Part shown: one piece after another, positions 51,786 to 64,000 of the stretch
How positions within the stretch are numbered: position 1 is the stretch's first letter
Layout of the letters: every line of letters begins with the position of its first letter
The notes under the pieces: generated by a model
The model's database searches: none
What the model was told of the DNA's origin: nothing
The model's input: only the letters and a program-made list of their open reading frames with translations
Made by a program: the position numbers and the translations under genes
DNA from: an uncultured delta proteobacterium
Lineage (GTDB): Bacteria > Desulfobacterota > Desulfobacteria > Desulfobacterales > JAFDCJ01
Length of the DNA: 64,000 nt
Reading direction: 5' to 3'
NCBI GenBank assembly: GCA_963769935.1
Contig: CAVYNY010000017.1
Coordinates: forward strand, 64,001-128,000

Positions 51786-52310
51786 TTAAATGTCAAACTT
51801 AAATTGACGCATATATTCTCCAAGCCGCTGTTTTTTTTCAGCACTCAACGACGGACAATCCGCCGGGCCTTTCGCATCCTCGGCCATGCGGGCGGCAAAC
51901 ACCATGCAGGTTGGCTCGCCGCATTCCTTGCAGTTGGTCTTCGGCAGCAGTTTGAGAATCTCGATCAGTTGGGGTTTGGGTGCGCCTTCATAGCTGGGTT
52001 CAATCCCATTTCGGTTTTCCCAGGCATCGTTGATTTCCCGCTGCAGCCACGCGAGGATCTTGTCGGCTTCGTCCTCGTCTTTGAGAGCATTAATTGCGAT
52101 TTTGCAGCCGTGCACGGTAATAAGCTTGCCCTGTGATCGAAATATAACCGCCGGCGGATCCTTGAGGTAATCAAAACCGCCGAGGACGGCATTCAGATAG
52201 GGCAGCACCGCCGAAATATCCTGCTCCAGATGGGCGATGCAGTGCACGGATTCAAAGCTCGGGTTGCACTCGGGTCTGAATATTTCTTTGGAATAGCTTT
52301 TTAGCAACAT
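51786..52310 (-). CDS. Putative Fe-S-binding protein
   Basis: LLPKTNCKECGEPTCMVFA...CP motif of the Fe-S domain also found in RnfB/AcsC N-termini. Confidence 0.85.
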   Translation of the reverse strand: MLLKSYSKEIFRPECNPSFESVHCIAHLEQDISAVLPYLNAVLGGFDYLKDPPAVIFRSQGKLITVHGCKIAINALKDEDEADKILAWLQREINDAWENRNGIEPSYEGAPKPQLIEILKLLPKTNCKECGEPTCMVFAARMAEDAKGPADCPSLSAEKKQRLGEYMRQFKFDI

Positions 52311-52416
52311 GACCGATACTCCTTGAGTGGTTGGTTTAGGGTTAACTTAACCGTGTTTTCATTTTTTCACTGGCTTTAGTTATGATCATTCATTTCGACT
52401 CAAGCAATTGAAGCGA

Positions 52417-53549
52417 TCAATATTCGACTTTGACAATCACCAGGGTGATGTCGTCTTCCTGTTTCCGGGCGCCTCGGAAATTCTGTACAGCATTCAATAT
52501 TGCCTCTTTAATAGCCTTTGCCGACTTGCCGGCCTGCGCCCGGACAATCTCCCGCAGCCTTTCTTTGCCGAACAATTCGCCTTTTATGTTCTGCGTCTCC
52601 CACAGTCCGTCGGTTCCGAAGACAAATATTTGCTCCGGTCTGATCTCTCGTCGGTATTCTGCGTAAGCTACATTTTTGGAAACACCCATGGCCATTCCCT
52701 GGCCTCCCAATTCCTCAAAAATACTCATATGCGGATCATAAACAATTGCCGGGTCGTGGCCGGCTCTGACCCAGCGCACGCTTTTTGCCTGGAAGTCGAA
52801 TTGTGCGTAAAACAAGGTCATAAACCGGCCGGAGTCGCCGACGTCCAGGCAGAGCTGATGGTTGATGTCGGAAAGATCGCAGCGATGCAACCCGGAAATG
52901 CTGCCCTCTGATGCAGCAAGGCCCGGGCGGTAGCCATTAGCAGGGCTGCGGAGATGCCGTGTCCGGTGACATCGCCGATGACCACCCCGAATTTGCCGGC
53001 CTTGTGCTCAGCGATAGTCAAGTAATCGAAATAATCACCACCTACCCGTCGCAATAAATGCAGCTGCCGGAAACATCCAGTCCGGGAGCCTCCGGATCTG
53101 ATTGGGGCAAAAGGCTGCGTTGCACTTCGGTTGCCAGCGCCATTGAGTGCTCCACGCGGACGTTCTTTTGCAGAGCGGGCCGATGGTATTGAAAACGCGT
53201 CCAAGCTCGCCGAATTCATCCCGCGAGCGGATATCCACCCGGGTGTTAAAATTCCCGCAGCCAAGTGCCGAACGCCTTGAGTCAGTATCCGGAGACGTTG
53301 GGTGACGGTTCGCGAAAACAATAAGGCAAGCGCCGCAGCAATTAGAATCATTGCCAGCATCAAATACAGAGAAAAGTCAAATTGGTTGGAAATGAGCTAA
53401 TTGACAAGCGGCTCCCGGACCAGTGGTGTTTGCCTGATCAGTTCATTGCCGAGTTTGTGCAGGTGCATAAAACCAAATGTCCTTAAGGCCAGCGGCGGAA
53501 TAATCGCAACCACCAGCAGTATGATAAGCAGCTTCCAGCGGTATCTCAT
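52417..53549 (-). pseudogene. HAMP-SpoIIE (PP2C) phosphatase, multiply frameshifted, periplasmic region largely missing
   Basis: MRYRWKLL TM, HAMP (DIRSRDEFGELG), VGGDYFD, GDVTGHG, RAGHDP, TDGLWE and EDDITLV spread over four ORFs. Confidence 0.8.
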
Positions 53550-54027
53550 GGTTTTCCTTCGGGGGTATACCCCTGTTAAAACAGATGGTCCCGGGGTGCC
53601 ATGTGCGCTCAACAGACAAGGCGGTCCGAACACCTGCCGGATTCAGCGAACGCCCTCTGTACCGGGCATCTGTGAGCAGCCCGTTGCCTGAGCGGACGGA
53701 TGATCTTCCAGCCAGTATTTTAAATTACCCAGCATAACCGCTAAATTTCTTCATGGATAAATTCTTCCTCGCTGATGTTCAATACCATCGGCAACTCCTT
53801 CATACTGTCGGATTCCGGAGGACCATAATGAGCAGAGGCAACAAAAATATTTTGATTTGCCGGCTTATCATCACTTTTCCTGTTACTCCTTTCGGGCCTT
53901 TTTTTGTTCGGCCTATCGTCATTTTCCTTCCTCCCCTGAGTCATCAGGCAAAACATCTCGCATCGGATTCATAAATTCCGACTGGCTGCATTTTTAATGA
54001 TCCTTCGCAGGCCTTTGAAGGTTCAGG

Positions 54028-55116
54028 CTATGGTTCAGAGCAATATTTCTTTCCTCTTCCTTCCGAAATTTCGCACAACATGCCGCCGTTGCCGCATTGG
54101 GCGGTCTCAAACTGCAAAACGGGATGATCAATGCCGAAGCTGTGAAATAAAGCATGACGAATTTTTTGACCGATTTGCTCGGTCCGGCTTACGGGTTGAT
54201 CCGCCACCTCTATGTGGCAGGAAAAAGCAACGCTGGTTGAAGACACATTCCAGGCATGCATGTAGTGGATGCCCACAATATCCGGCAGTTTCAAAAGTTG
54301 CTTTCTGATCTGTTCAAGATCGAGTCCCTTGGGGGTGGCATTCATCAGAACCAACCCGGATTCTTTTAAAATTCCCCAGCAATTCTCCAAAATAAAGAGC
54401 ACAATCAGAATCGACAACACCGGGTCCAGCCAGTACCAGGGTTTAAAGATCAACACCACGCCGTTGATGAAGACGACCACCGAGGTGAGCAGGTCTCCCA
54501 GCATGTGCCAAAAGGCTCCGCGGACATTCAGGCTGTGTTTCGAATCCCGGTGCAGCAGCCAGGCCGAAAGACCATTGCCGGCTATACCGACCGCCGCCAG
54601 TCCCATAACCAGCCGTCCAATCACCGGCTGCGGATTCTGAAACCGCTGGATGGCTTCGAAAACAATGAAGGCGGCTGCTCCCACCAGTATTACCACATTG
54701 ATCTGGGCCGCCAGAATTTCAGCACGGCGATAGCCGAACGTGTTTTGCACCGTTGCTCCCTTTCGACCGATACGAAAAGCGATATAGGATATCAATATGG
54801 CGCCTGAGTCGCTGAAATTGTGAATTGCGTCCGAAATCAGCGCCACACTATTGGCCAAAACCCCTCCGATGATCTGGGCGATAGGGATAATAAGATTCAA
54901 GCCCAGGGTCATCAAAAGACGGGATCCGCTGGTATCTTCCATGTTCACATGGTGATGCGAATGGCTGTGTGCATGGCTATCTGTCGCTTCATCCTCCTTC
55001 TGGTGGATTTGCGTTGAAGACAAATACTCCAGGTGATTGTCGATATGGATGTCGGTGTTCTTATTCATTTGTGGTATATTCCGCTTCATGTTTAGGCTGT
55101 GGTCGGATTTCATCAT
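54028..55116 (-). CDS. CDF-family cation efflux transporter (CzcD/ZitB-like) with His-rich N-terminus; start uncertain
   Basis: HSHAHSHSHHH, ALISDAIHNFSD, TFGYRRAE and HMLGD motifs. Confidence 0.9.
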   Translation of the reverse strand: MMKSDHSLNMKRNIPQMNKNTDIHIDNHLEYLSSTQIHQKEDEATDSHAHSHSHHHVNMEDTSGSRLLMTLGLNLIIPIAQIIGGVLANSVALISDAIHNFSDSGAILISYIAFRIGRKGATVQNTFGYRRAEILAAQINVVILVGAAAFIVFEAIQRFQNPQPVIGRLVMGLAAVGIAGNGLSAWLLHRDSKHSLNVRGAFWHMLGDLLTSVVVFINGVVLIFKPWYWLDPVLSILIVLFILENCWGILKESGLVLMNATPKGLDLEQIRKQLLKLPDIVGIHYMHAWNVSSTSVAFSCHIEVADQPVSRTEQIGQKIRHALFHSFGIDHPVLQFETAQCGNGGMLCEISEGRGKKYCSEP

Positions 55117-55433
55117 CTCCTCGTTAGTCGCCTCATAAATAGGGCGAATTTCTCATTCGGAGGGATTTGTCTTTTTGATAATGCGATGAATGCTTTTTAC
55201 CGGACGGATCGATTGTTATGATCCACTGCTTTGGGGAGAAAATGTAGATCAGATTAGAAGGCAGGTAGTTAATAAATAGATCGGCGTCGATTTTTTTATG
55301 ATCGCTCCAGAAATTAACTGCCAGCAAAAGGGTTAACAGCAAATATTGTATTCTTTGCCTGTTCTCACTATCCGTTTTATTCATTGTCGACATTTGCAGC
55401 GTATCCCCACCTTTTCCCCAAATAAGAGGATTT

Positions 55434-56141
55434 TTAAGATAATATTAGCGGATCGATAATAAAATACACTCCCAAAAGGACGATGGTAATTCCGGCTGCG
55501 CGTCGAAACCACAAACCGGCACCCTGCCAGGCGCTGCTTTCGGTCAGTTTGCGCACCATGGCCGTGGAACTGCCGGCCGCGACGATGGGAAGGCAGTGAC
55601 CCAGGGCGAAGAGGATCATCATGACCGAACCCGCGACGATTTTCTGCTGCACGGTGACGATGGCCAGGATCGGGGCGATGAAGCCGAAGGTGCAGGATCC
55701 GGACAGGATGCCGTAGGCGAGCCCCAAGCCGAACGCGCCGTGGATGCCCCGCAATTTCAACCGGTAGAGCAGCGCGCCGGACATGGAGCATGCCTGCACG
55801 CCGAGCATGCCCAGGGCCACCCAGATCAGGACGCCGCCGACAAGGATCTGCCACCATATGCCCACATCGCCCAGCATACGGCCCAGCAGGGCGCAGACGA
55901 TCCCTGCGACAGCGATGGTAATAAAAAGCCCCAAGGTGAAAGCGCCGGCATACCAGGCGGCCCGCCGGGGGTTAACGGCGCTTTCCTGCCCGCCCACATA
56001 GGCCACGATCAAGGGGATGGAGGCCAGGTGGCAGGGGGAAAACAGCACGCTGACCATACCCCAGGCAAAGGCGCCCACCGCGGCGACGGCCAAACCGCCG
56101 GTCATCCATTGATTTACGGTCAGCAGAAACTGATCAAACAT
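55434..56141 (-). CDS. ccdA: CcdA/DsbD-type membrane disulfide reductase
   Basis: SPCHLASIP and SGSCTFGFIAP conserved cysteines; six TM segments. Confidence 0.88.
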   Translation of the reverse strand: MFDQFLLTVNQWMTGGLAVAAVGAFAWGMVSVLFSPCHLASIPLIVAYVGGQESAVNPRRAAWYAGAFTLGLFITIAVAGIVCALLGRMLGDVGIWWQILVGGVLIWVALGMLGVQACSMSGALLYRLKLRGIHGAFGLGLAYGILSGSCTFGFIAPILAIVTVQQKIVAGSVMMILFALGHCLPIVAAGSSTAMVRKLTESSAWQGAGLWFRRAAGITIVLLGVYFIIDPLILS

Positions 56142-56206
56142 ATCCGCATCGATCCTTTGCTAAAAATGCCAATGGGGACTAAGCACATATTTTTTCATGA
56201 CTTTCA

Positions 56207-56596
56207 TTATTCAATTCCCATTTTTTTTAGCTGGTTGACGATCGCCTTTTCACTCATGAAACCGACATGGCGGAAGACCTCCTTGCCGTTTTCATGGAAA
56301 AATATCTGCGTGGGGATGGCCCGTATTCCAAAGCGCCGGGCCTGTTCCTTGTGCTTCCAGACATCAATGAACACAATGGCGGCTTTTTCCGCATATTGTT
56401 TTTCCATCTTCTCAATGATGGGAGTCATCATTTTGCATGGAATGCATTCAGTGGCACCCAAGTCGATCATAGTAACCTTGCCTTTGACCGGTACGTCATC
56501 GAAATCTTCGGCCATGGCGACACCGGCTGTCAAGACAGCCGCGACAAACAATAATGAGATGCTCCGCAGGCAGATGCCGGCATAATATCGATTCAT
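56207..56596 (-). CDS. Exported thioredoxin-family protein
   Basis: Signal peptide; DLGATECIPCKMM and IPTQIFF motifs. Confidence 0.9.
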   Translation of the reverse strand: MNRYYAGICLRSISLLFVAAVLTAGVAMAEDFDDVPVKGKVTMIDLGATECIPCKMMTPIIEKMEKQYAEKAAIVFIDVWKHKEQARRFGIRAIPTQIFFHENGKEVFRHVGFMSEKAIVNQLKKMGIE

Positions 56597-56794
56597 AAAT
56601 TACCCCTATCGGTCAGAAACTGATTGGTCCTTGTATCGGCGTCTACTTTTGACCAGTTGAACCTCGCACCGATATTTGCTTCTATTATCTCATATGCCTG
56701 CCAACTGAATCTTTCGGAGGAGGGAAGGCAGTGCGTTTCGCCAAAAGTAAGGTGTTAGTAAACGACCGCAGCTTGCTTTTTTAGAGCTGTACGA

Positions 56795-57220
56795 TTAGCC
56801 GCAGCAGGAGCTCGTCACACCTTTAGCCGCTGGCTCAGCCGAAGCTTTGCGAGCACACGCTGTTTGCATGGCGTTCTTGACAGTTTTGATATCTTCAGGT
56901 TTCAGGTTGAAGTCCTTGTTTTTTTCAATCCCGAGTTCGGTTACCACAATATAATTTTTAAGCGGCACCTTCGCCTGTTCAAGAATGGCTTTAGCACATC
57001 CCACCGAGCAACCGTCGATGGCCACCATTTGCGGTACATCTTTGGCAGACTGGACAAACCCGCTGAGTTGCCCGCCAATGCCGGCCAGGCAAAACATTTT
57101 GCCGAAACCCTCGCGGGTTAATTCCACCGCCGCTTGATTGGTGAGCTGTCCCACGTTGGAACCGCCCGAGCAGGCCAGGATCATAATGTTTCCATCTGGA
57201 GTACAACAATCGTTAGCCAT
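56795..57220 (-). CDS. DGC-domain putative zinc-binding protein
   Basis: CSGGSNVGQ, FCLAGIG and AIDGCSVGC motifs. Confidence 0.88.
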   Translation of the reverse strand: MANDCCTPDGNIMILACSGGSNVGQLTNQAAVELTREGFGKMFCLAGIGGQLSGFVQSAKDVPQMVAIDGCSVGCAKAILEQAKVPLKNYIVVTELGIEKNKDFNLKPEDIKTVKNAMQTACARKASAEPAAKGVTSSCCG

Positions 57221-57387
57221 GTATGGCCTCCTTTTATGCTTGTTTGTTAAAAATCTGGTACTTTGCCAAAAAAATTATTCAACCGGTGCATATCCAATTG
57301 GTGCTGACTTCATTATTGAAAGACTCTCTGTTTACATCAAAATGCCGGCGGCATTATTTACGGAAAAATCCTATGCGATCACTGGAA

Positions 57388-58620
57388 TCAGGCCGGCTCC
57401 GATTCAGCTGCCAGACGGGATGGAACGACCTGGCCGTTGATCAAAATAAAGCTCAGCATCAGCGTGATGACTAAGGCAGCGGCGTAGATCATGAACAACG
57501 CGGACAGGCCGTAGACGGATGCGATTTTTCCGCCGATGGCTGTCCCGAGACCTCCGCCGCCCATGAAGCAAAAAGCCACCAGAGACATGGCCGCCCCCCG
57601 CGCTTTGCGGGCGAACTCAGTGGCACGCGTTAAAAGGGTGGAGTGGGTGAAAATAAACCCGAGACCCAGCAATCCGATGCCGACCACCAGCCACCCGACA
57701 CTGGGGCCGAAATAATAGATGAAAAAGTCGGCCAGAGTGGCAAACATAAGCCCCAGTGTCAGGATTTTGCGGGCACCGATTTTTGGAACGAGTTTGCCGC
57801 TTAGGCGCCCGCCGACCACCGTCATCAAGCCAAAAGCCGTCATGATAATTCCGATGGTCAGGTAGTTGAAATGATGTGTTTTAGCAATGAAGGCGCCGAG
57901 ATAGGAAAAGCTGCCGATGATGAACATGCCTTCCAGCAATATCAGAATATAGGTAAACAGGCTTTTGGGATCGGCCAGAAGTTTCAAATAAGGCGCAATA
58001 AATTTACTGTCCGCATGCTTGGTATCCGGCAGCAGCTTATAGTTTTTGATGAGCATCACCATCGGAATGACGGACAGCAGGGCATAGATCGCGAACACGC
58101 CGCGCCAGTTTAAAAAATAGGCAATCGCGCCGCCGGTAACCATGCTTAAGCCCTGACCGAGAAAGGATATGCCCATGAAGTTTCCGATGGCGCCCTGTCT
58201 TTGCTCGATCGGAAAAATATCGCCGATCAACGCCAGCGATATGGGCATCACGGCCGCCGCAAAAATGCCGGTCAGCGCCCGGTAAATCGCCAGATCGGTC
58301 AAGCCAAAGCCCGCCGCACACATTCCGGTGGCGATGGTAAACAGTATCATCGAAAAAGTTATGACCTGTTTTTTGCCGTAGCGATCCGCCAGGGGACCGA
58401 AAATAATTTGAAAAATGCCAAAAGGAATCATGTAAGCGGCGATCAGAAGCCCGGCACGCTCGACTGCAACGCCTATATTTTCAGAAATCGCAGGCAGAAT
58501 GGGTGACACGACCCAGTTATCGGCCATAACAATAAATCCCAAAAAACCAAGTAAGATGACAATTCTATTTTTTTTCAACTTGACAGCTCCCTCAGGAAAT
58601 TCTGTCAGCAGGCATATCAA
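57388..58620 (-). CDS. MFS transporter (start uncertain)
   Basis: GPLADRYGKK motif A; twelve TM segments. Confidence 0.9.
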   Translation of the reverse strand: MICLLTEFPEGAVKLKKNRIVILLGFLGFIVMADNWVVSPILPAISENIGVAVERAGLLIAAYMIPFGIFQIIFGPLADRYGKKQVITFSMILFTIATGMCAAGFGLTDLAIYRALTGIFAAAVMPISLALIGDIFPIEQRQGAIGNFMGISFLGQGLSMVTGGAIAYFLNWRGVFAIYALLSVIPMVMLIKNYKLLPDTKHADSKFIAPYLKLLADPKSLFTYILILLEGMFIIGSFSYLGAFIAKTHHFNYLTIGIIMTAFGLMTVVGGRLSGKLVPKIGARKILTLGLMFATLADFFIYYFGPSVGWLVVGIGLLGLGFIFTHSTLLTRATEFARKARGAAMSLVAFCFMGGGGLGTAIGGKIASVYGLSALFMIYAAALVITLMLSFILINGQVVPSRLAAESEPA

Positions 58621-58710
58621 ACCCTTTTAACGGTAGGGTATGGACATGCCCGCTGGGTTGATTGTTGGTGTGGAACGGTATTGCTGCCTCAGCTTAATCG
58701 AAGCGTGATG

Positions 58711-58944
58711 TTATTCGGCCAACCAGGACTTAACCTCTTCTTTTTTGGGGATTTTGCCGACGCTTTTGACTTGGCCGTCAATAACAACAGCCGGCGTGCC
58801 GAACACACCGTAGCCGGCAATTTCCATAGTGTCGGTCACATGTCCGACGGTAGCATCCACGCCCGCTTCCGCTAAAGCTTCTTTAACGATTTTTTCTGTC
58901 TGTTGACATTTGGGACAACCGGGTCCAAGCACTTTGATTTCCAT
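58711..58944 (-). CDS. Small redox-active disulfide protein (thioredoxin-like)
   Basis: MEIKVLGPGCPKC..GVFGTPAVVIDG. Confidence 0.92.
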   Translation of the reverse strand: MEIKVLGPGCPKCQQTEKIVKEALAEAGVDATVGHVTDTMEIAGYGVFGTPAVVIDGQVKSVGKIPKKEEVKSWLAE

Positions 58945-59003
58945 GATGAGTACCTCCTGATTAAAAAATTTAATGTTTGACTAATTTTTTGTGGGCTTTT
59001 ATT

Positions 59004-59508
59004 TTATTGTTTCGCAAATGCATCTTGCAGCCATTGCTTTAGCTTTGTTTTGGGTGGAATTGAACCGACCGACTTGACCGCGCCGTTGACAATCAGCGCC
59101 GGGGTGCCCATCACCCCGTAGCTGCCGATTTCAGCGATGTCGGTAACGTGCTCGACATCAGCCGCCATATTCATCTCGGCCATCACCGCCATCAGATCCT
59201 GCTCCAGCTGGTTGCAGCGCGTGCAGCCGGAGCCCAGCACCTTGATTTCCAGCCCGTCCGGACCGCTGTTCTCAATTGGACGGCCGGTAAATTTTTTAAA
59301 CTCTCTTAAGAAAGCGTTGCCGTATTCCGCTTTCGACGACTCGGGAATATAGTTGCGCTTAGCGAGCCGTTTTAATAGTTCGCTACGAATTTCTTCATCG
59401 GATTGGACGGCAAACCCTTCAGCCACTTCGGTTAGAACAGGCTTCAGCCCGATAATGCCGGTGCGATCCCCTCCGACTTTTGATTTGAGTGATTTCATCT
59501 GAAGTCAT
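59004..59508 (-). CDS. Thioredoxin-like protein with N-terminal extension (likely +1 slip near 59480)
   Basis: C-terminal IKVLGSGCTRC..GVMGTPAL; probable true start MTSDEITQIK at 59508. Confidence 0.8.
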
Positions 59509-59536
59509 GATATTATTTTCTTCTCCGTTTAAGTGG

Positions 59537-60925
59537 TTAAGCGAAAAAATGGCCGAAAATCATGCCGCTGATAGTGGCCATGACCACCACCAGGCTCACA
59601 AAGGCCACCGTCTTCTTAGTACCCATGATACTTCGGATCACCAGCATGTTGGGCAGGCTCAGAGCCGGACCGGCCAGAAGCAGCGCCAGGGCCGGACCCT
59701 GCCCCATTCCGGCGCCGAGAAGACCTTGCAGAATCGGTACCTCGGTCAGCGTGGCAAAGTACATAAATGCGCCGACTACCGATGAGAACAGGTTGGCCCC
59801 CAGGGAATTGCCACCCACCAGTCCGGCGACCCACTTGGATGGAATCAGGCCTTCCGAGCCGGGTCGGCCGAGTAAAAGACCTGCAACCAGCACCCCGCCG
59901 AACAGCAGCGGGGTAATCAGCTTGGCAAAATCCCAGGTGGACGTAAACCAGGATTCGGTTTCCCCGCGGGTGGTGGTCAGCAGCACCACCAATGCAATGA
60001 TGCCGGCCGCAAAGGCAATCAGGGGCCGGTGCGGGAAAACAAATGCCAGGACCAGAACGGCGGCGGCGGCTAGGACGACTTTAATAGCTTTTACGCGGAA
60101 CCATTTGGTCAGCAGCACGCCGAGCGCAATCGCAAAAAACCCCGTCAGCCACCACTTGACGCCGTAGACCGTATTCCAAAACCCCACCGGTTGTTCGGGT
60201 TTGCCCCAGGTGGCAAAGATCAGAACTCCCACCATGCAGGCAAAATAGATCACATTCTGCCACAGCGGCCGCTCCACTTCCTGCTCCGGCAGGTGCAGGG
60301 CTGCCTGGGCCTTGGCCTGCTCTTCCTTGCGGAACATGAGATGCATGATCAGGCCGATGACCACGCTGAACAGCACGGCTCCCACGGCCCGGGCCACGCC
60401 GAGGGGCAGCCCGAGCACCCTGGCGGTCAAGACGATCGCCAGCACGTTGATCGCCGGGCCGGAATACAGAAACGCAATGGCCGGGCCGAGGCCGGCGCCG
60501 CGCTTCCAGATACCGGCGAAAAGCGGCAGCACCGTGCAGGAGCAGACCGCCAGGATGGAGCCCGACACGGAGGCCACTCCATAGGACATGACCTTTTTGG
60601 CGCCGGCCCCCAGGTATTTCATGACCGCGGCCTGGGACACGAATACGGAAATGGCGCCGGCGATGAAAAAGGCCGGCACCAGGCACAGCAGCACGTGCTC
60701 CTGGGCGTACCACTTGACTAAAGCCAACGACTCGATCACCGCGCCGGTAAATCGGCTATTGTTTATCGGAAGCCAGAAAAATATAAGAAAAACGCCGATA
60801 ATGAGACTTAAAGGCTTCCATATGGCTTTCCAATCGATTGAGCTGGGTTGGGTGTCAACCTTTTCAACCTTAGAGGATTGTTTGATGCCGGCCCTATGTT
60901 CAGTAACTGCGGATGGTTCACTCAT
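59537..60925 (-). CDS. ArsP-like (DUF318) permease
   Basis: HVLLCLVPAFFIAGAI, VCSCTVLPLF, FLYSGPAIN, FMYFATLTEVP and GPALSLP motifs. Confidence 0.88.
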   Translation of the reverse strand: MSEPSAVTEHRAGIKQSSKVEKVDTQPSSIDWKAIWKPLSLIIGVFLIFFWLPINNSRFTGAVIESLALVKWYAQEHVLLCLVPAFFIAGAISVFVSQAAVMKYLGAGAKKVMSYGVASVSGSILAVCSCTVLPLFAGIWKRGAGLGPAIAFLYSGPAINVLAIVLTARVLGLPLGVARAVGAVLFSVVIGLIMHLMFRKEEQAKAQAALHLPEQEVERPLWQNVIYFACMVGVLIFATWGKPEQPVGFWNTVYGVKWWLTGFFAIALGVLLTKWFRVKAIKVVLAAAAVLVLAFVFPHRPLIAFAAGIIALVVLLTTTRGETESWFTSTWDFAKLITPLLFGGVLVAGLLLGRPGSEGLIPSKWVAGLVGGNSLGANLFSSVVGAFMYFATLTEVPILQGLLGAGMGQGPALALLLAGPALSLPNMLVIRSIMGTKKTVAFVSLVVVMATISGMIFGHFFA

Positions 60926-61015
60926 TTTTGTATTTCCTTTCTCCCTTATGATCCATGCTGAATCTATAAAATTTATCTGAATATTTAAGTCGGGGGGCAG
61001 TGTTTAATAAAACGC

Positions 61016-61037
61016 TATATGCATATTTAACGATATA
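61016..61037. promoter_or_regulatory. ArsR-type operator upstream of the permease
   Basis: TATATGC-N8-CGATATA; reverse complement closely matches 61407-61430. Confidence 0.6.
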
Positions 61038-61052
61038 TTAAAATAAAAAAAA

Positions 61053-61397
61053 TTAGCCCCGGCAGATATCGATTCGGTTTATAAAAGGTGCTTTTTTCAT
61101 CATTTCTGCGATTTCAGCATCTTCGTTCAACCAGTGCTGAAGATTGCCAAGCAGACTGGCGGCATAGGGGCTACTCTTGCCGTTGGCAAGGGAATAGTTT
61201 ACCCACAAGCCTTCTTTCCTATAGTCAACCAACCCGGCCTCTTCGAGTATTTTCAGGTGCTTGGATACCGTCGGCTGAGCCAGCTTTAATGCCGCCTGAA
61301 GCTCACAAACGCACATAAATTTTTGCTGCAGCAGCTTGATAATTTTGACCCGATTTGGGTCAGACAACGCTTTCATGACTTTCACAAATGATTTCAT
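61053..61397 (-). CDS. arsR: ArsR-family repressor
   Basis: KALSDPNRVKII, MCVCEL and QPTVSKHLKILEEAGLV motifs. Confidence 0.93.
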   Translation of the reverse strand: MKSFVKVMKALSDPNRVKIIKLLQQKFMCVCELQAALKLAQPTVSKHLKILEEAGLVDYRKEGLWVNYSLANGKSSPYAASLLGNLQHWLNEDAEIAEMMKKAPFINRIDICRG

Positions 61398-61407
61398 GAT
61401 AACCTCA

Positions 61408-61452
61408 TATATCGTTAAAATAGAATATAGTCGGTCTCGCCACTTTTGTCAA
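61408..61452 (-). promoter_or_regulatory. arsR promoter with overlapping 7-8-7 operator
   Basis: Minus strand TTGACA-17 bp-TATATT; TATATCG-N8-GAATATA at 61408-61429. Confidence 0.7.
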
Positions 61453-61489
61453 ATCTTTTTTGCAAAAATTAATACCGAAATTCTAAACC

Positions 61490-61870
61490 CTAACAAATCT
61501 CCAAAGCAATCAGTGTAATGTCATCATGGGTAAGCGATTTTTCGGCATAATCATGCAATTTTTTGAGCACCACAGATTTAAGTTCGGAAAGAGAGGCTTT
61601 CGGGTTAGCGTCAAGGACATCTTTAAGACGCGTTAATCCAAAATTTTCACCCTTGGGGCTGGGTGTGTCGATGATGCCATCGGTATAGACCAAGAGCCGG
61701 TCTCCGGGCGCCATCGAAATCGTGAATTGCTCGTATATCGTATCAAATTCGACTGCAAGGGGGATGTTCAGCGGAAAACTGTCACTCTCATCTTTCCGGT
61801 CTGAGGGTCTTGCATAGGACCAGGCTTTGTCGCCCGTTCGCCTGTATAGAATTGGGGGGTGTCCGGCAGA
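61490..61870 (-). pseudogene. 3' fragment of SpoIIE/PP2C phosphatase
   Basis: SAGHPPIL...GDRLLVYTDGII...HDDITLIALE; no 5' half. Confidence 0.8.
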
Positions 61871-61876
61871 AAATTA

Positions 61877-62410
61877 TTAGTTGCTCAACAGTTTTTCCAT
61901 TGAGATCAATAATTCATTTTTTAGATCGTTACGGGCGCGATATTTACATTTGGCGGCCCAATCATCGGTTAATTGATGCATCCAGTATATAGGCTTTGGC
62001 GGTGTTTTCTTCCATTCCACAAATAGCCGGTAAAAAAGATAAATATCCCAGGCGACGTTCCCGGCCCAGCCAACACTGTCGGCGATTAGCTTGCCGACCT
62101 TTTTGTGTGGATCGTAAAAATGCTGGATTCTTTTATCGCTTAAGAATTTAACAGATGGAAGGGCCGCCTCCAAGGAATCATCCTCGAGCATGGGAATCCA
62201 AATGATTGCAGCGCTGATATCTGCATCGGGATATTTTTCAAAAACATTTTCATGCACCGCACGGGCACCTTTGTCACGTCACATGGGGCATGTAGGAGAG
62301 AGCAAGGCGAAGAATCGGATTTTGTCACGATCCCTGTTAAATCGCTCTTTAAGCGATTCCAGAGACTTGTCCAGGTTAATTATACGAGTTGACTGGTTGT
62401 CATTTTTCAT
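61877..62410 (-). CDS. Candidate selenoprotein, thioredoxin-like fold, CxxU motif (177 aa)
   Basis: MKNDNQ...RFFALLSPTCPM-UGA(62279-62281)-RDKGARAVHENVF...AWDIYLFY; frame open on both sides of the UGA. Confidence 0.75.
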
Positions 62411-62411
62411 T

Positions 62412-62615
62412 TCAAAAACCTTTCAACTTATCCACCACCCGGCGGATATCGGCCAAGCATCATTTTCCCTTAGGGTTCATCGTCGCGCAGCGGCAATTGC
62501 CAAACTTCTTTTCCATTTGGATTCTTTCCATTATCGTTGACTTGCCATTTTCTAAATAGTCCCGGTTAATATCATCGGCCGAGTACTCGAAACAGTAGCA
62601 AATTAAGTTCTTCAC
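62412..62615 (-). CDS. Candidate selenoprotein, small Cys-rich BFD-like/metal-binding protein (67 aa)
   Basis: GTG start after AGGA; LICYCF...CRCATMNPKGK-UGA(62460-62462)-CLADIRRVV; SECIS-like hairpin 11 nt after the UGA. Confidence 0.8.
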
Positions 62616-62681
62616 AAAGCTCTTCCTTTTGAATTTATATGGGACCGTTGCGTTTCACACCGCGTTATATGAGACTGCATC

Positions 62682-62786
62682 TCACACAGAGCGCTCAGAG
62701 GTCACAGAGGTTCGGGTTAGTAGTCGCCTGCGGCGAAAGAAAAATGTTCTCCGCGGTCTCTGCGAGCTCTAACGAAGTGGGCGTGA
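62682..62786. repeat. Palindromic repeat, inverted relative of 4836-4942
   Basis: TCACACAGAGCGCTCAGAGGTCACAGAG ... CTCCGCGGTCTCTGCGAGCTCT..GGGCGTGA. Confidence 0.6.
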
Positions 62787-62831
62787 TAGTAAGTCCAACT
62801 GTGTCCGAATTCCCAAAAGTTTCTTTCTCGA

Positions 62832-63596
62832 TTAATCTGGCCTTCTTTTGGGTAAAGTCAGGAACACTTTGCGGCTGAACTTATGAAGCACCGGGGTTCC
62901 CATGCCGTGCCGGATGGCTTTCAGGGTTTTTTCTTTGTCGATCGGCACGGTGCCGGCGAGCATAGCGACCGGCAGGTGACGGAAGGCCTCCGCCGCCATG
63001 GGCGTGCTGGGACCGAGCATCACCGTTTTTACCTTTTCCGCGACATTGGCCAGAATTTCTTCAGTGCTGTTGTTCAAAATGGAAGTGGAGGTCAACAGCA
63101 GTACCTGGGCCCAGTTTTTCAGCTTTTTATAGAATTCTTCCTTGTGGCCGAGTCCTCTGGAAGTATCCAGAATCTCCACGAAACTCCATTTTTTTCAAAG
63201 TTTCTGACCAGCGGACCGAAGTAGCCGACCATGGCGACCCGGCGGCCCCGGCCGATTTTAAATCTTTCGAACATGAGGCTGTTGTCGTCATCTTCGGGCA
63301 GCTCAAGGGCCGCTCGGTAGTTGAGGGCATTGATCAGGGCCAGGGCCATGCTTTTTTCAATGGGTATGTCGCTCTTAATTTTTTCAAGGAGCTGTTCCGC
63401 CGGATCGGCCTTCATAATCGACGCGGGTATTTAAAACCATGCAGGACTTTTTATCGCTAAAGTAGGTGTATGACAGGCCGATCCCGCCATCGGAGGTGGT
63501 GACGGCGGTGTAGCCGAGACCCAGGCTTAGTATCGTTACATTGACCTTTCGGGCCTGTTCGATGAATAGATCATAAAGCCTATTGTTTAATTCCAT
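62832..63596 (-). CDS. DUF364-family (Rossmann-like, putative heavy-metal chelation) protein, two frameshifts
   Basis: LGLGYTAV..GGIGLSYT, ALINALN, VAMVGYFGP, TSTSILN and MLGPSTP spread over three ORFs. Confidence 0.75.
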
Positions 63597-63723
63597 TATC
63601 GGATTCTCCTTCGGGGTTAAGCTGCGGCGCTGCTGCGACGGCTTGAAACTATCATAGTTGCTGTTTTCCTACAACAGGTTCGAGGCTTCTCTCCAAATAA
63701 AATGCTGGAATGTTGGATAAATC

Positions 63724-63837
63724 GGTTAGCCCGTTTGCCGGTTAGCCGGTAGGCCGTTAAGCCTATTTATCGGTTAGCCGGCCAACGGCCCAACGGCCCA
63801 ACGGGCTAACCGGCTAACGGGCCCACGGGTCAACCCG
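63724..63837. repeat. Inverted arrays of degenerate 8-bp tandem repeats
   Basis: (GGTTAGCC)-like units followed by (GGCTAACC/GCCCAACG)-like units. Confidence 0.75.
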
Positions 63838-64000
63838 TCTCATTTCCGCACTCAAGTTTACCCTCATATCGGCCGATATTCCAGCTAAGAGCTCACTCAA
63901 AGATAACTTCCCATTTTATACGCCGCTGCATCCCGCCCGGCTGCGTTGCGAAAGCTCGGAATATCCAGATATTCCTGCGTTTTCGCGCCTTGCCGGCCGG

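Follow-up and report, generated by a model that had tools for sequence, protein, structure and literature searches.

Two short genes on the minus strand of a contig from an uncultured delta proteobacterium, each carrying an in-frame UGA codon, raise a question with several parts. Are these codons read as selenocysteine (Sec), to which families do the two proteins belong, and what might the pair do upstream of a cluster of arsenic genes? The stretch of DNA analysed, hereafter the window, is 64,000 nucleotides long and contains the pair close to its end. The first-pass annotation had described two adjoining minus-strand genes with a TGA-a-ATG junction, each with one in-frame UGA at a Cys-motif position (NPKGK-U-C and C-P-M-U), and had noted that ORF calling misses the first and cuts the second short. 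All of this is confirmed from the sequence; translation table 11 yields a 51-aa stub of gene 1 and a 126-aa, GTG-started piece of gene 2. The elements of the pair are listed below.

62412..62615, minus strand: gene 1, GTG start at 62615, TGA stop to 62412, 67 aa, predicted selenoprotein
62460..62462, minus strand: in-frame TGA of gene 1, Sec52 in NPKGK-U-C, aligned with Cys118 of 2HU9
61877..62410, minus strand: gene 2, ATG at 62410 to TAA at 61877, 177 aa, predicted selenoprotein
62279..62281, minus strand: in-frame TGA of gene 2, Sec44 in SPT-C-P-M-U, second position of the CxxC-type motif
62408..62414, minus strand: TGA-a-ATG junction of gene 1 and gene 2, with a 47-nt deletion compared with close relatives

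In close relatives, the stop codon of gene 1 is placed 7 codons further downstream than in the window, and the 1-nt spacing is derived, since it results from a 47-nt deletion relative to the related locus L078. No paralogue of gene 1 or gene 2 was found elsewhere in the genome.

Both in-frame UGAs are almost certainly read as selenocysteine, as the first-pass annotation had proposed, and its own tests of machinery, homologue codons and reads support that reading. The genome (8.0 Mb, 41 contigs) contains selA, selB, selC and selD. It encodes a tRNA-Sec(UCA) with a long variable arm, a selB above the cut-off and two full selD genes, each with one in-frame TGA (contig C20, 157619-158545; contig C7, 116160-117080). 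The selA gene (contig C22) is broken by assembly frameshifts that vanish in short-read contigs; three extra assembly bases in this region are without support in run X2, and two of the three are also missing from run X1. The genome also carries a tRNA-Pyl(CUA) (contig C11, 285724-285797) and seems to use both Sec and Pyl.

At both sites homologues carry UGA or Cys, never Trp. Among 151 fetched gene 2 loci, 148 show the motif region and the other three were dropped; position 44 is TGA in 113 of these 148, TGC or TGT in 35 and TGG in none, although the loci are related and partly duplicated, so that such counts are not independent. For gene 1, TGA stands at the same site in all 30 loci fetched across the class and in 104 of 110 match rows, and five of the six rows lacking it end before the motif. 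That two such codons are not chance errors, another claim of the initial reading, is borne out by the retention of TGA in all 88 copies of gene 1 (74 distinct) that precede gene 2. The machinery follows the same pattern: in the 50 of 66 genome loci covered by the selB and merA searches, selB exceeded its cut-off in 38 of the 45 genomes whose gene 2 has a UGA form vs one of five with the CxxC form, these being incomplete metagenome-assembled genomes. The sole selB-positive genome with the CxxC form also carries UxxC paralogues. The unpublished genome G342 contributes a single row each to this count, to alignment A4 and to the 111-row tree described below.

It is exceedingly improbable that the UGAs are instead stops, Trp codons or sequencing errors, as would be expected of pseudogenes or an alternative code. 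Such a reading could appeal to indel errors close by in the assembly and to the W found at gene 2 position 44 in 49 database homologues, but it is already refuted at the DNA level. Because the assembly carries indel errors, the TGAs were compared with read contigs; those of run X1 span both TGAs and the junction with 0 differences from the assembly, and where TGC or TGG would have spoken against Sec, TGA is present at both sites. Run X1 is possibly the source sample, so this agreement tests the assembly and not the biology. The W in the 49 database proteins is an artefact of code-4 translation, since TGG occurs at position 44 in no fetched locus. TGA is the commonest stop of this genome and terminates 789 of 2032 open frames of at least 400 aa; it is thus a normal stop here, the genome does not use code 4, and the UGAs are not Trp codons. 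Moreover, the frame stays open for 100 codons past the gene 2 motif in 145 of 147 loci, and Cys homologues are known for both Sec sites.

Just 3′ of each UGA there is a hairpin with a G in its apical loop, as follows.

62431..62446, minus strand: SECIS-like hairpin 1, 6-bp stem with a GGGU loop, stem beginning 13 nt past UGA 1
62254..62268, minus strand: SECIS-like hairpin 2, 5-bp stem over the G-A-R-A-V codons, beginning 10 nt past UGA 2

Codon choice in hairpin 1 is strongly restricted, for example to GTG in 63 and 64 of 68 sequences at two Val codons, and few two-sided changes are seen (15 of 500 shuffles were equally high). The stem of hairpin 2 covaries and is the consensus fold of the CxxU, UxxU and UxxC genes but not of the CxxC genes. 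Its synonymous Gly3:Val3 pair is kept, as TA, TG, CG and GC types, in 115 of 121 distinct Sec-form sequences, vs a shuffle mean of 71% with 0 of 2000 shuffles as high, in a comparison that leaves relatedness uncontrolled. In the six CxxC genes the stem has collapsed, the outer pair persisting in two and the inner pair in one. Neither hairpin region has a local folding energy better than that of shuffles (z −1.0 and +0.48), and no Rfam match was obtained in 52000-64000. Across the genome, the patterns of hairpins 1 and 2, which were drawn from these same sequences, follow 61 and 774 of 281,676 TGA trinucleotides, respectively. A window scan for more genes with a UGA and a hairpin returned only out-of-frame candidates, under criteria so strict that both known sites were unlisted.

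What, then, is gene 1? Its product is predicted to be a stand-alone, BFD-like [2Fe-2S] half of the CopZ N-terminal domain, with the cluster itself predicted from sequence and model. The protein contains the motifs C-Y-C, C-x-C and NP-x-G-x-U-C in this order, so that GxUC, C-x-C and the third Cys of the 2Fe-2S site are all there. It aligns with positions 86-137 of the 138 in NF047645 (CopZ_Nterm_CC) at 51.6 bits, below the cut-off of 100, and with form 2, NF045877 (Csac_0668), at 31.8 bits, below the cut-off of 190 and with UC instead of CU; PF04324 gives a weak match. A profile of 21 homologues finds 2HU9, the N-terminal domain of Archaeoglobus fulgidus CopZ (E 0.034), in which Cys75, 77, 109, 118 and 119 align with Cys6, Cys8, Cys43, Sec52 and Cys53. 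The AF2 model (pLDDT 92) also has 2HU9 as its best Foldseek match (probability 0.90, TM 0.62, E 0.37), followed by Bfd. Gene 1 would thus fold like the [2Fe-2S] half of this domain, with Sec predicted next to a cluster-site Cys. The CopZ cluster ligands are reportedly Cys75, 77, 109 and 119; with this ligand set, Sec52 would stand beside the cluster and not on it. Compared with the full CopZ N-terminal domain, gene 1 is the C-terminal half only, without the N-terminal half and below the model cut-off, whereas it shares G-x-U-C, C-Y-C, the third Cys and the best PDB match 2HU9 with form 1 of the CopZ-like BFD proteins (cd10141). Gene 1 is therefore already known in kind, as the GxUC form appears among the predicted selenoprotein families in Table 1 of PMC13188914. 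It was found in 98 of 301 genomes of the class, vs five of 301 for gene 2, and being far commoner it does not need gene 2; elsewhere it lies downstream of merT-merP, merB, merA or acr3.

Gene 2 is less familiar. It is predicted from its model to be a TlpA/ResA-type thioredoxin-fold protein with C-x-x-U at the start of helix 1. The AF2 model (pLDDT 85) has the CxxC-type motif at helix 1, the canonical place, and its best Foldseek matches are of TlpA/ResA type (E 1.1e-4, TM about 0.5), while profile comparison with a ResA-like domain gave no significant match. At E 0.1 and 0.01 the protein matched no Pfam or NCBIfam family, and 66 aligned members searched against both collections at E up to 10 gave scattered weak thioredoxin matches (best 0.0033), none of them to PF00578, PF04592, PF13911, PF10262 or NF041199-type NCBIfam models. 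A kinship with SelP-N/SelL was considered and rejected, there being no profile match. In all 66 rows A-W-D precedes strand 3 (123-127, from Ile123), with Asp122 invariant and no Pro at 120-122; gene 2 is accordingly predicted, with the position taken from the secondary structure of the model, to carry Asp where thioredoxins have their cis-Pro. The protein lacks a signal peptide; among UxxC relatives, several begin with a signal-like or lipoprotein-like N-terminus.

A profile search with gene 2 found 899 representatives at E ≤1e-10. The closest named relatives come from Desulfobacterales and Olavius delta symbionts, and readable motifs among the best 150 relatives are mostly CxxC (66). Several Cys homologues are fused to HMA, MerT or DF-family domains, and ESM Atlas look-alikes of one Cys homologue fall into ‘hypothetical protein’ clusters without Pfam assignments. 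No description of the family was found in the literature searched, where an earlier unlabelled listing is possible. By domain model it matches no entry in the accessible part of the 119-family selenoprotein table (PMC13188914) and none of the nine deep-Sep families as far as these are given in the accessible text, and its motif strings have no match in the BSepDB supplement, which may not contain sequences. Like Prx-like PF00578 proteins, the GOS ‘Prx-like 2’, Trx7/PDZ (NF041199), SelW-like proteins and eukaryotic SelL, as far as their accessible descriptions go, gene 2 combines a thioredoxin fold with Sec in a CxxC-type motif; the GOS paper and PMC13188914 report that Sec varies in position, or occurs twice as UxxU, in some of these proteins. 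It differs from them, in a comparison made by profiles, in the Asp at the presumed cis-Pro site and in its mer-type context.

The relatives of gene 2 display a full series of motifs. The 148 loci comprise 93 CxxU, 29 UxxC, 20 UxxU and 6 CxxC forms (73, 29, 19 and 6 distinct, respectively). For phylogeny the motif positions were masked, and 200 rows were thinned to 111 and to 58, the 58-row tree being rooted on three distant rows. In this tree all 16 CxxU rows group with 12 UxxU rows in one clade (95/88), outside which lie the UxxC and CxxC rows. Within it, one UxxU row is the sister (99/97) of the main CxxU clade (100/99). Two origins of CxxU are seen in the free tree, but an AU test does not reject one (p 0.41), so that the data fit either number. 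A second character agrees with the tree: the distance from the motif to the hairpin Gly is 3 residues in 83 of 83 CxxU and 18 of 18 UxxU rows, vs 2 residues in 29 of 29 UxxC and 61 of 63 scored CxxC rows. The nesting of CxxU in UxxU suggests that Sec crossed the motif through a two-Sec stage. The simplest order that we infer from these sequences starts at UxxC, from which a second UGA would have been gained together with a one-codon shift of the hairpin, and the first Sec would then have been lost.

Shifting positions of Sec within a motif have precedent in the accessible parts of the Olavius paper and the GOS paper, so the movement seen in gene 2 is not categorically new. CXXU, UXXC and UXXU variants are likewise described for Group 4 [NiFeSe] hydrogenases in the part of PMC13582414 that is accessible. 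Like these enzymes, gene 2 holds all Sec states of one CxxC motif inside one family. The hydrogenase motif, however, as described there, serves as a metal ligand in a large enzyme and has independent origins, whereas gene 2 is a small thioredoxin fold in which CxxU nests in UxxU and shares with it a one-codon insertion.

Does the pair belong to the arsenic genes downstream of it? The window around the pair has the following features.

62832..63596, minus strand: DUF4213-DUF364 ‘putative heavy-metal chelation’ gene, with two frameshifts that are assembly errors
62665..62852, no strand assigned: dispersed repeat of about 190 bp between the DUF364 gene and gene 1, with 38 genome matches of at least 150 bp, not in L078
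61490..61798, minus strand: SpoIIE/PP2C C-terminal fragment in the interval between gene 2 and arsR (PF07228 positions 100-190 of 192), also in L078
61424..61452, minus strand: sigma-70-like promoter directly before arsR, TTGACA-17-TATATT, 11/12, a consensus match only
51786..61397, minus strand: arsR, ArsP_1 permease, two TIGR00412 thioredoxins, MFS protein, DGC protein, thioredoxin, DsbD_TM protein, CDF transporter and Fe-S protein

The indels in the DUF364 gene, at 63179 and 63400, are missing from the X1 and X2 contigs, and the gene is intact in L078. Tuf-like genes (contig C22) are also split, and other broken genes of the window may be indel artefacts. The 190-bp repeat, which often forms tandem arrays with related units, shows moderate folding (z −2.0) and has no Rfam match. 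Short palindromic repeats lie at 63760-63830. They are followed, at about 63880-64000, by another dispersed repeat, of which the genome holds several further copies (88-96%). Upstream of the DUF364 gene, beyond the window, there is a cluster of multiheme cytochrome c-like ORFs (64077-72470), judged from CxxCH motifs. A second SpoIIE-type gene, in pieces, lies at the far end of the ars cluster (52417-53633), and one database protein (P0127) joins gene 1 to a SpoIIE-type tail.

The first-pass annotation had placed the pair after a DUF364 gene and before an arsR-permease-thioredoxin-ccdA cluster and had seen in it a metal/metalloid redox module. The order holds, while the immediate adjacency does not, as the repeat, the SpoIIE fragment and the promoter-like site of arsR intervene. 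The link to metals in general is supported by neighbourhoods and fusions, whereas the tie to the arsR-permease-thioredoxin-ccdA genes is weak. It is very improbable that the pair belongs to the downstream ArsR operon and serves arsenic detoxification. In its favour, the order DUF364-gene 1-gene 2-SpoIIE fragment-arsR is common to the window and L078 (82-90% DNA identity), arsR follows gene 2 in L078, L085, L132 and L156 and is itself followed by acr3 in the last two, and vicinal thiols or selenols bind As(III) too. Yet the pair lies upstream of the SpoIIE fragment and of a promoter-like site of arsR’s own, whose 11/12 match weakens the tie; mer-type genes are much commoner neighbours, and it is a mer-type setting that is conserved in relatives, ars genes adjoining gene 2 in a few close relatives only. 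Among the proteins scanned in the 51786-61397 cluster, no arsC, acr3 or arsM was found.

The pairing and its mer-type surroundings are best seen across the relatives. Where there was room to see, gene 1 lies directly upstream of gene 2 at 62 of 67 distinct CxxU and 7 of 15 UxxU loci, compared with 0 of 28 UxxC and 0 of 5 CxxC loci. A mer-type gene is present at 17 of the 25 distinct CxxU loci with at least 3 kb upstream; by labels taken from representatives, these 25 include a MerR family gene at 11, merF at 8, an HMA gene at 8, a merA-like gene at 6 and merT at 3. For the other forms the figures are 9 of 20 UxxC, 1 of 9 long UxxU and 3 of 4 CxxC loci. Several related loci have merR, a mercury transporter and merA (for example, L013, L022 and L126), and merA above the cut-off was confirmed at L010, L126, L013 and L022. 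Relatives of the pair close such operons, which resemble known mer operons (MerR-MerT/MerF-MerP-MerA), but the window copy differs from them: no mer gene is found at its locus, no merA in its genome reaches the cut-off (best 350.6 vs 454.45 bits), and neither gene is a described mer gene. In just 3 of 50 gene-2 genomes (25 candidates scored in each) and 3 of 301 class genomes (limited candidates) was merA above the cut-off. It is thus not required alongside gene 2.

Gene 1 also occurs as part of larger proteins, of which the following are predicted.

L020:7376-7885: HMA (MT-U-x-x-U)-gene 1 fusion, predicted to contain three Sec, with no full-length NCBIfam model
L019, L032, L037, L095, L099, L102, L106-L108, L110, L118, L130, L146 and L150: HMA-gene 1 fusion at the other 14 loci
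L027:7737-8504: single frame joining gene 1 to a UxxU gene 2, no stop and three UGAs, at a single locus in a long-read-type assembly

Fusion to an upstream HMA domain was found in 15 of 74 distinct gene-1 copies, with MT-U-x-x-U in 14 and MT-U-x-x-C in one, and the HMA UGAs are followed by a hairpin of their own. This fusion presumably has the reverse domain order to A. fulgidus CopZ. The fused domain matches NF041115, the model of a UxxU metal-binding selenoprotein, at 62 bits vs a cut-off of 95; this model and the MerT-CopZ selenoprotein NF045683 are, along with mer operons, among the nearest known systems. Database proteins of 229-278 aa that seem to fuse gene 1 with gene 2 were rejected as code-4 artefacts, the DNA having TGA, TAA or TAG after gene 1. 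The two frames use all three relative phases (27, 17 and 30 of 74 distinct pairs), and only L027 lacks a stop between them. TsoB- and TsoC-like selenoprotein genes follow gene 2 in about ten loci; ArsR-rhodanese, TsoB-like rhodanese-DsbD and TsoC-like genes form Sec-rich islands after it at L020, L023, L026, L130, L131, L144, L146, L150 and L157.

What could such a pair do? As relatives of gene 2 often stand beside mercury-resistance genes, the pair likely helps to handle toxic soft metals. The mer context, the fusions to HMA and MerT domains and the invariant Asp122 without Pro together favour the view that the Cys/Sec pair of gene 2 binds metal. On balance we consider it likely, with modest confidence, that these conserved-UGA genes, almost certainly Sec-encoding, form a cytoplasmic accessory unit that captures and redox-handles soft metals such as Hg(II) and Cu(I) and is derived from mer-type operons. 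The Cys/Sec pair of gene 2 would bind the metal, its selenolate out-competing cell thiols; the ferredoxin-like domain of gene 1, with or without an HMA partner, would supply electrons or take over the metal. The metal may then be passed to MerA where merA is present, and the unit may act as a sink where merA is absent, as here. Translation of gene 2 is probably coupled to that of gene 1 through the TGA-a-ATG junction.

The main rival of metal binding is a plain reductase role, in which both genes still encode selenoproteins and gene 2 is an ordinary TlpA/ResA-like thiol-disulfide oxidoreductase, binding no metal itself, whose task is to maintain Cys/Sec pairs in HMA, MerT/MerF or ars proteins in the reduced state. 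The top Foldseek matches are indeed oxidoreductases of TlpA/ResA/CcmG type, the motif sits at its canonical place, and rhodanese-DsbD (TsoB-like), CMD/AhpD and small thioredoxins are frequent neighbours. We nevertheless regard this role as rather unlikely in view of the Asp in place of Pro before strand 3 in 66 of 66 members, the location of Sec at the second motif position, which is usually buried, and the repeated fusions to metal-binding domains. The two selenoproteins might also have become neighbours by riding along on a mobile stress island, without any joint function, gene 1 being a general small Fe-S or metal-stress protein of the class. The many contexts of gene 1 in those 98 class genomes, against five for gene 2, speak for this, as does its absence upstream of the 28 UxxC and 5 CxxC loci; such independence is improbable, however, given how regularly gene 1 directly precedes the distinct CxxU genes and about half of the UxxU ones, and given that at L027 a single frame with three UGAs spans both genes.

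For the family and its hosts, the findings add a widespread selenoprotein family whose gene 2 members are split at the UGA in databases, mistranslated with Trp or even fused to a neighbour. The natural series of CxxC, UxxC, UxxU and CxxU in one small soluble protein makes the role of Sec at each position testable, as well as the service of one SECIS to two UGAs. Sulfate reducers are a group central to mercury chemistry in sediments, and selenium use in these bacteria would be linked to mercury and copper handling. We tentatively suggest, as a possible though still doubtful reading, that gene 2 represents an uncatalogued, metal-binding (cis-Pro-less) thioredoxin-fold selenoprotein family, in which Sec may have walked from the first to the second motif position via UxxU, a single SECIS hairpin being used in every state once one codon had been inserted. 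Together with the Sec-containing ferredoxin half and the triple-Sec HMA fusion, it may provide the mer operons of sulfate-reducing bacteria in sediments with a selenium-rich arm for capturing mercury, one that would be able to work without MerA.
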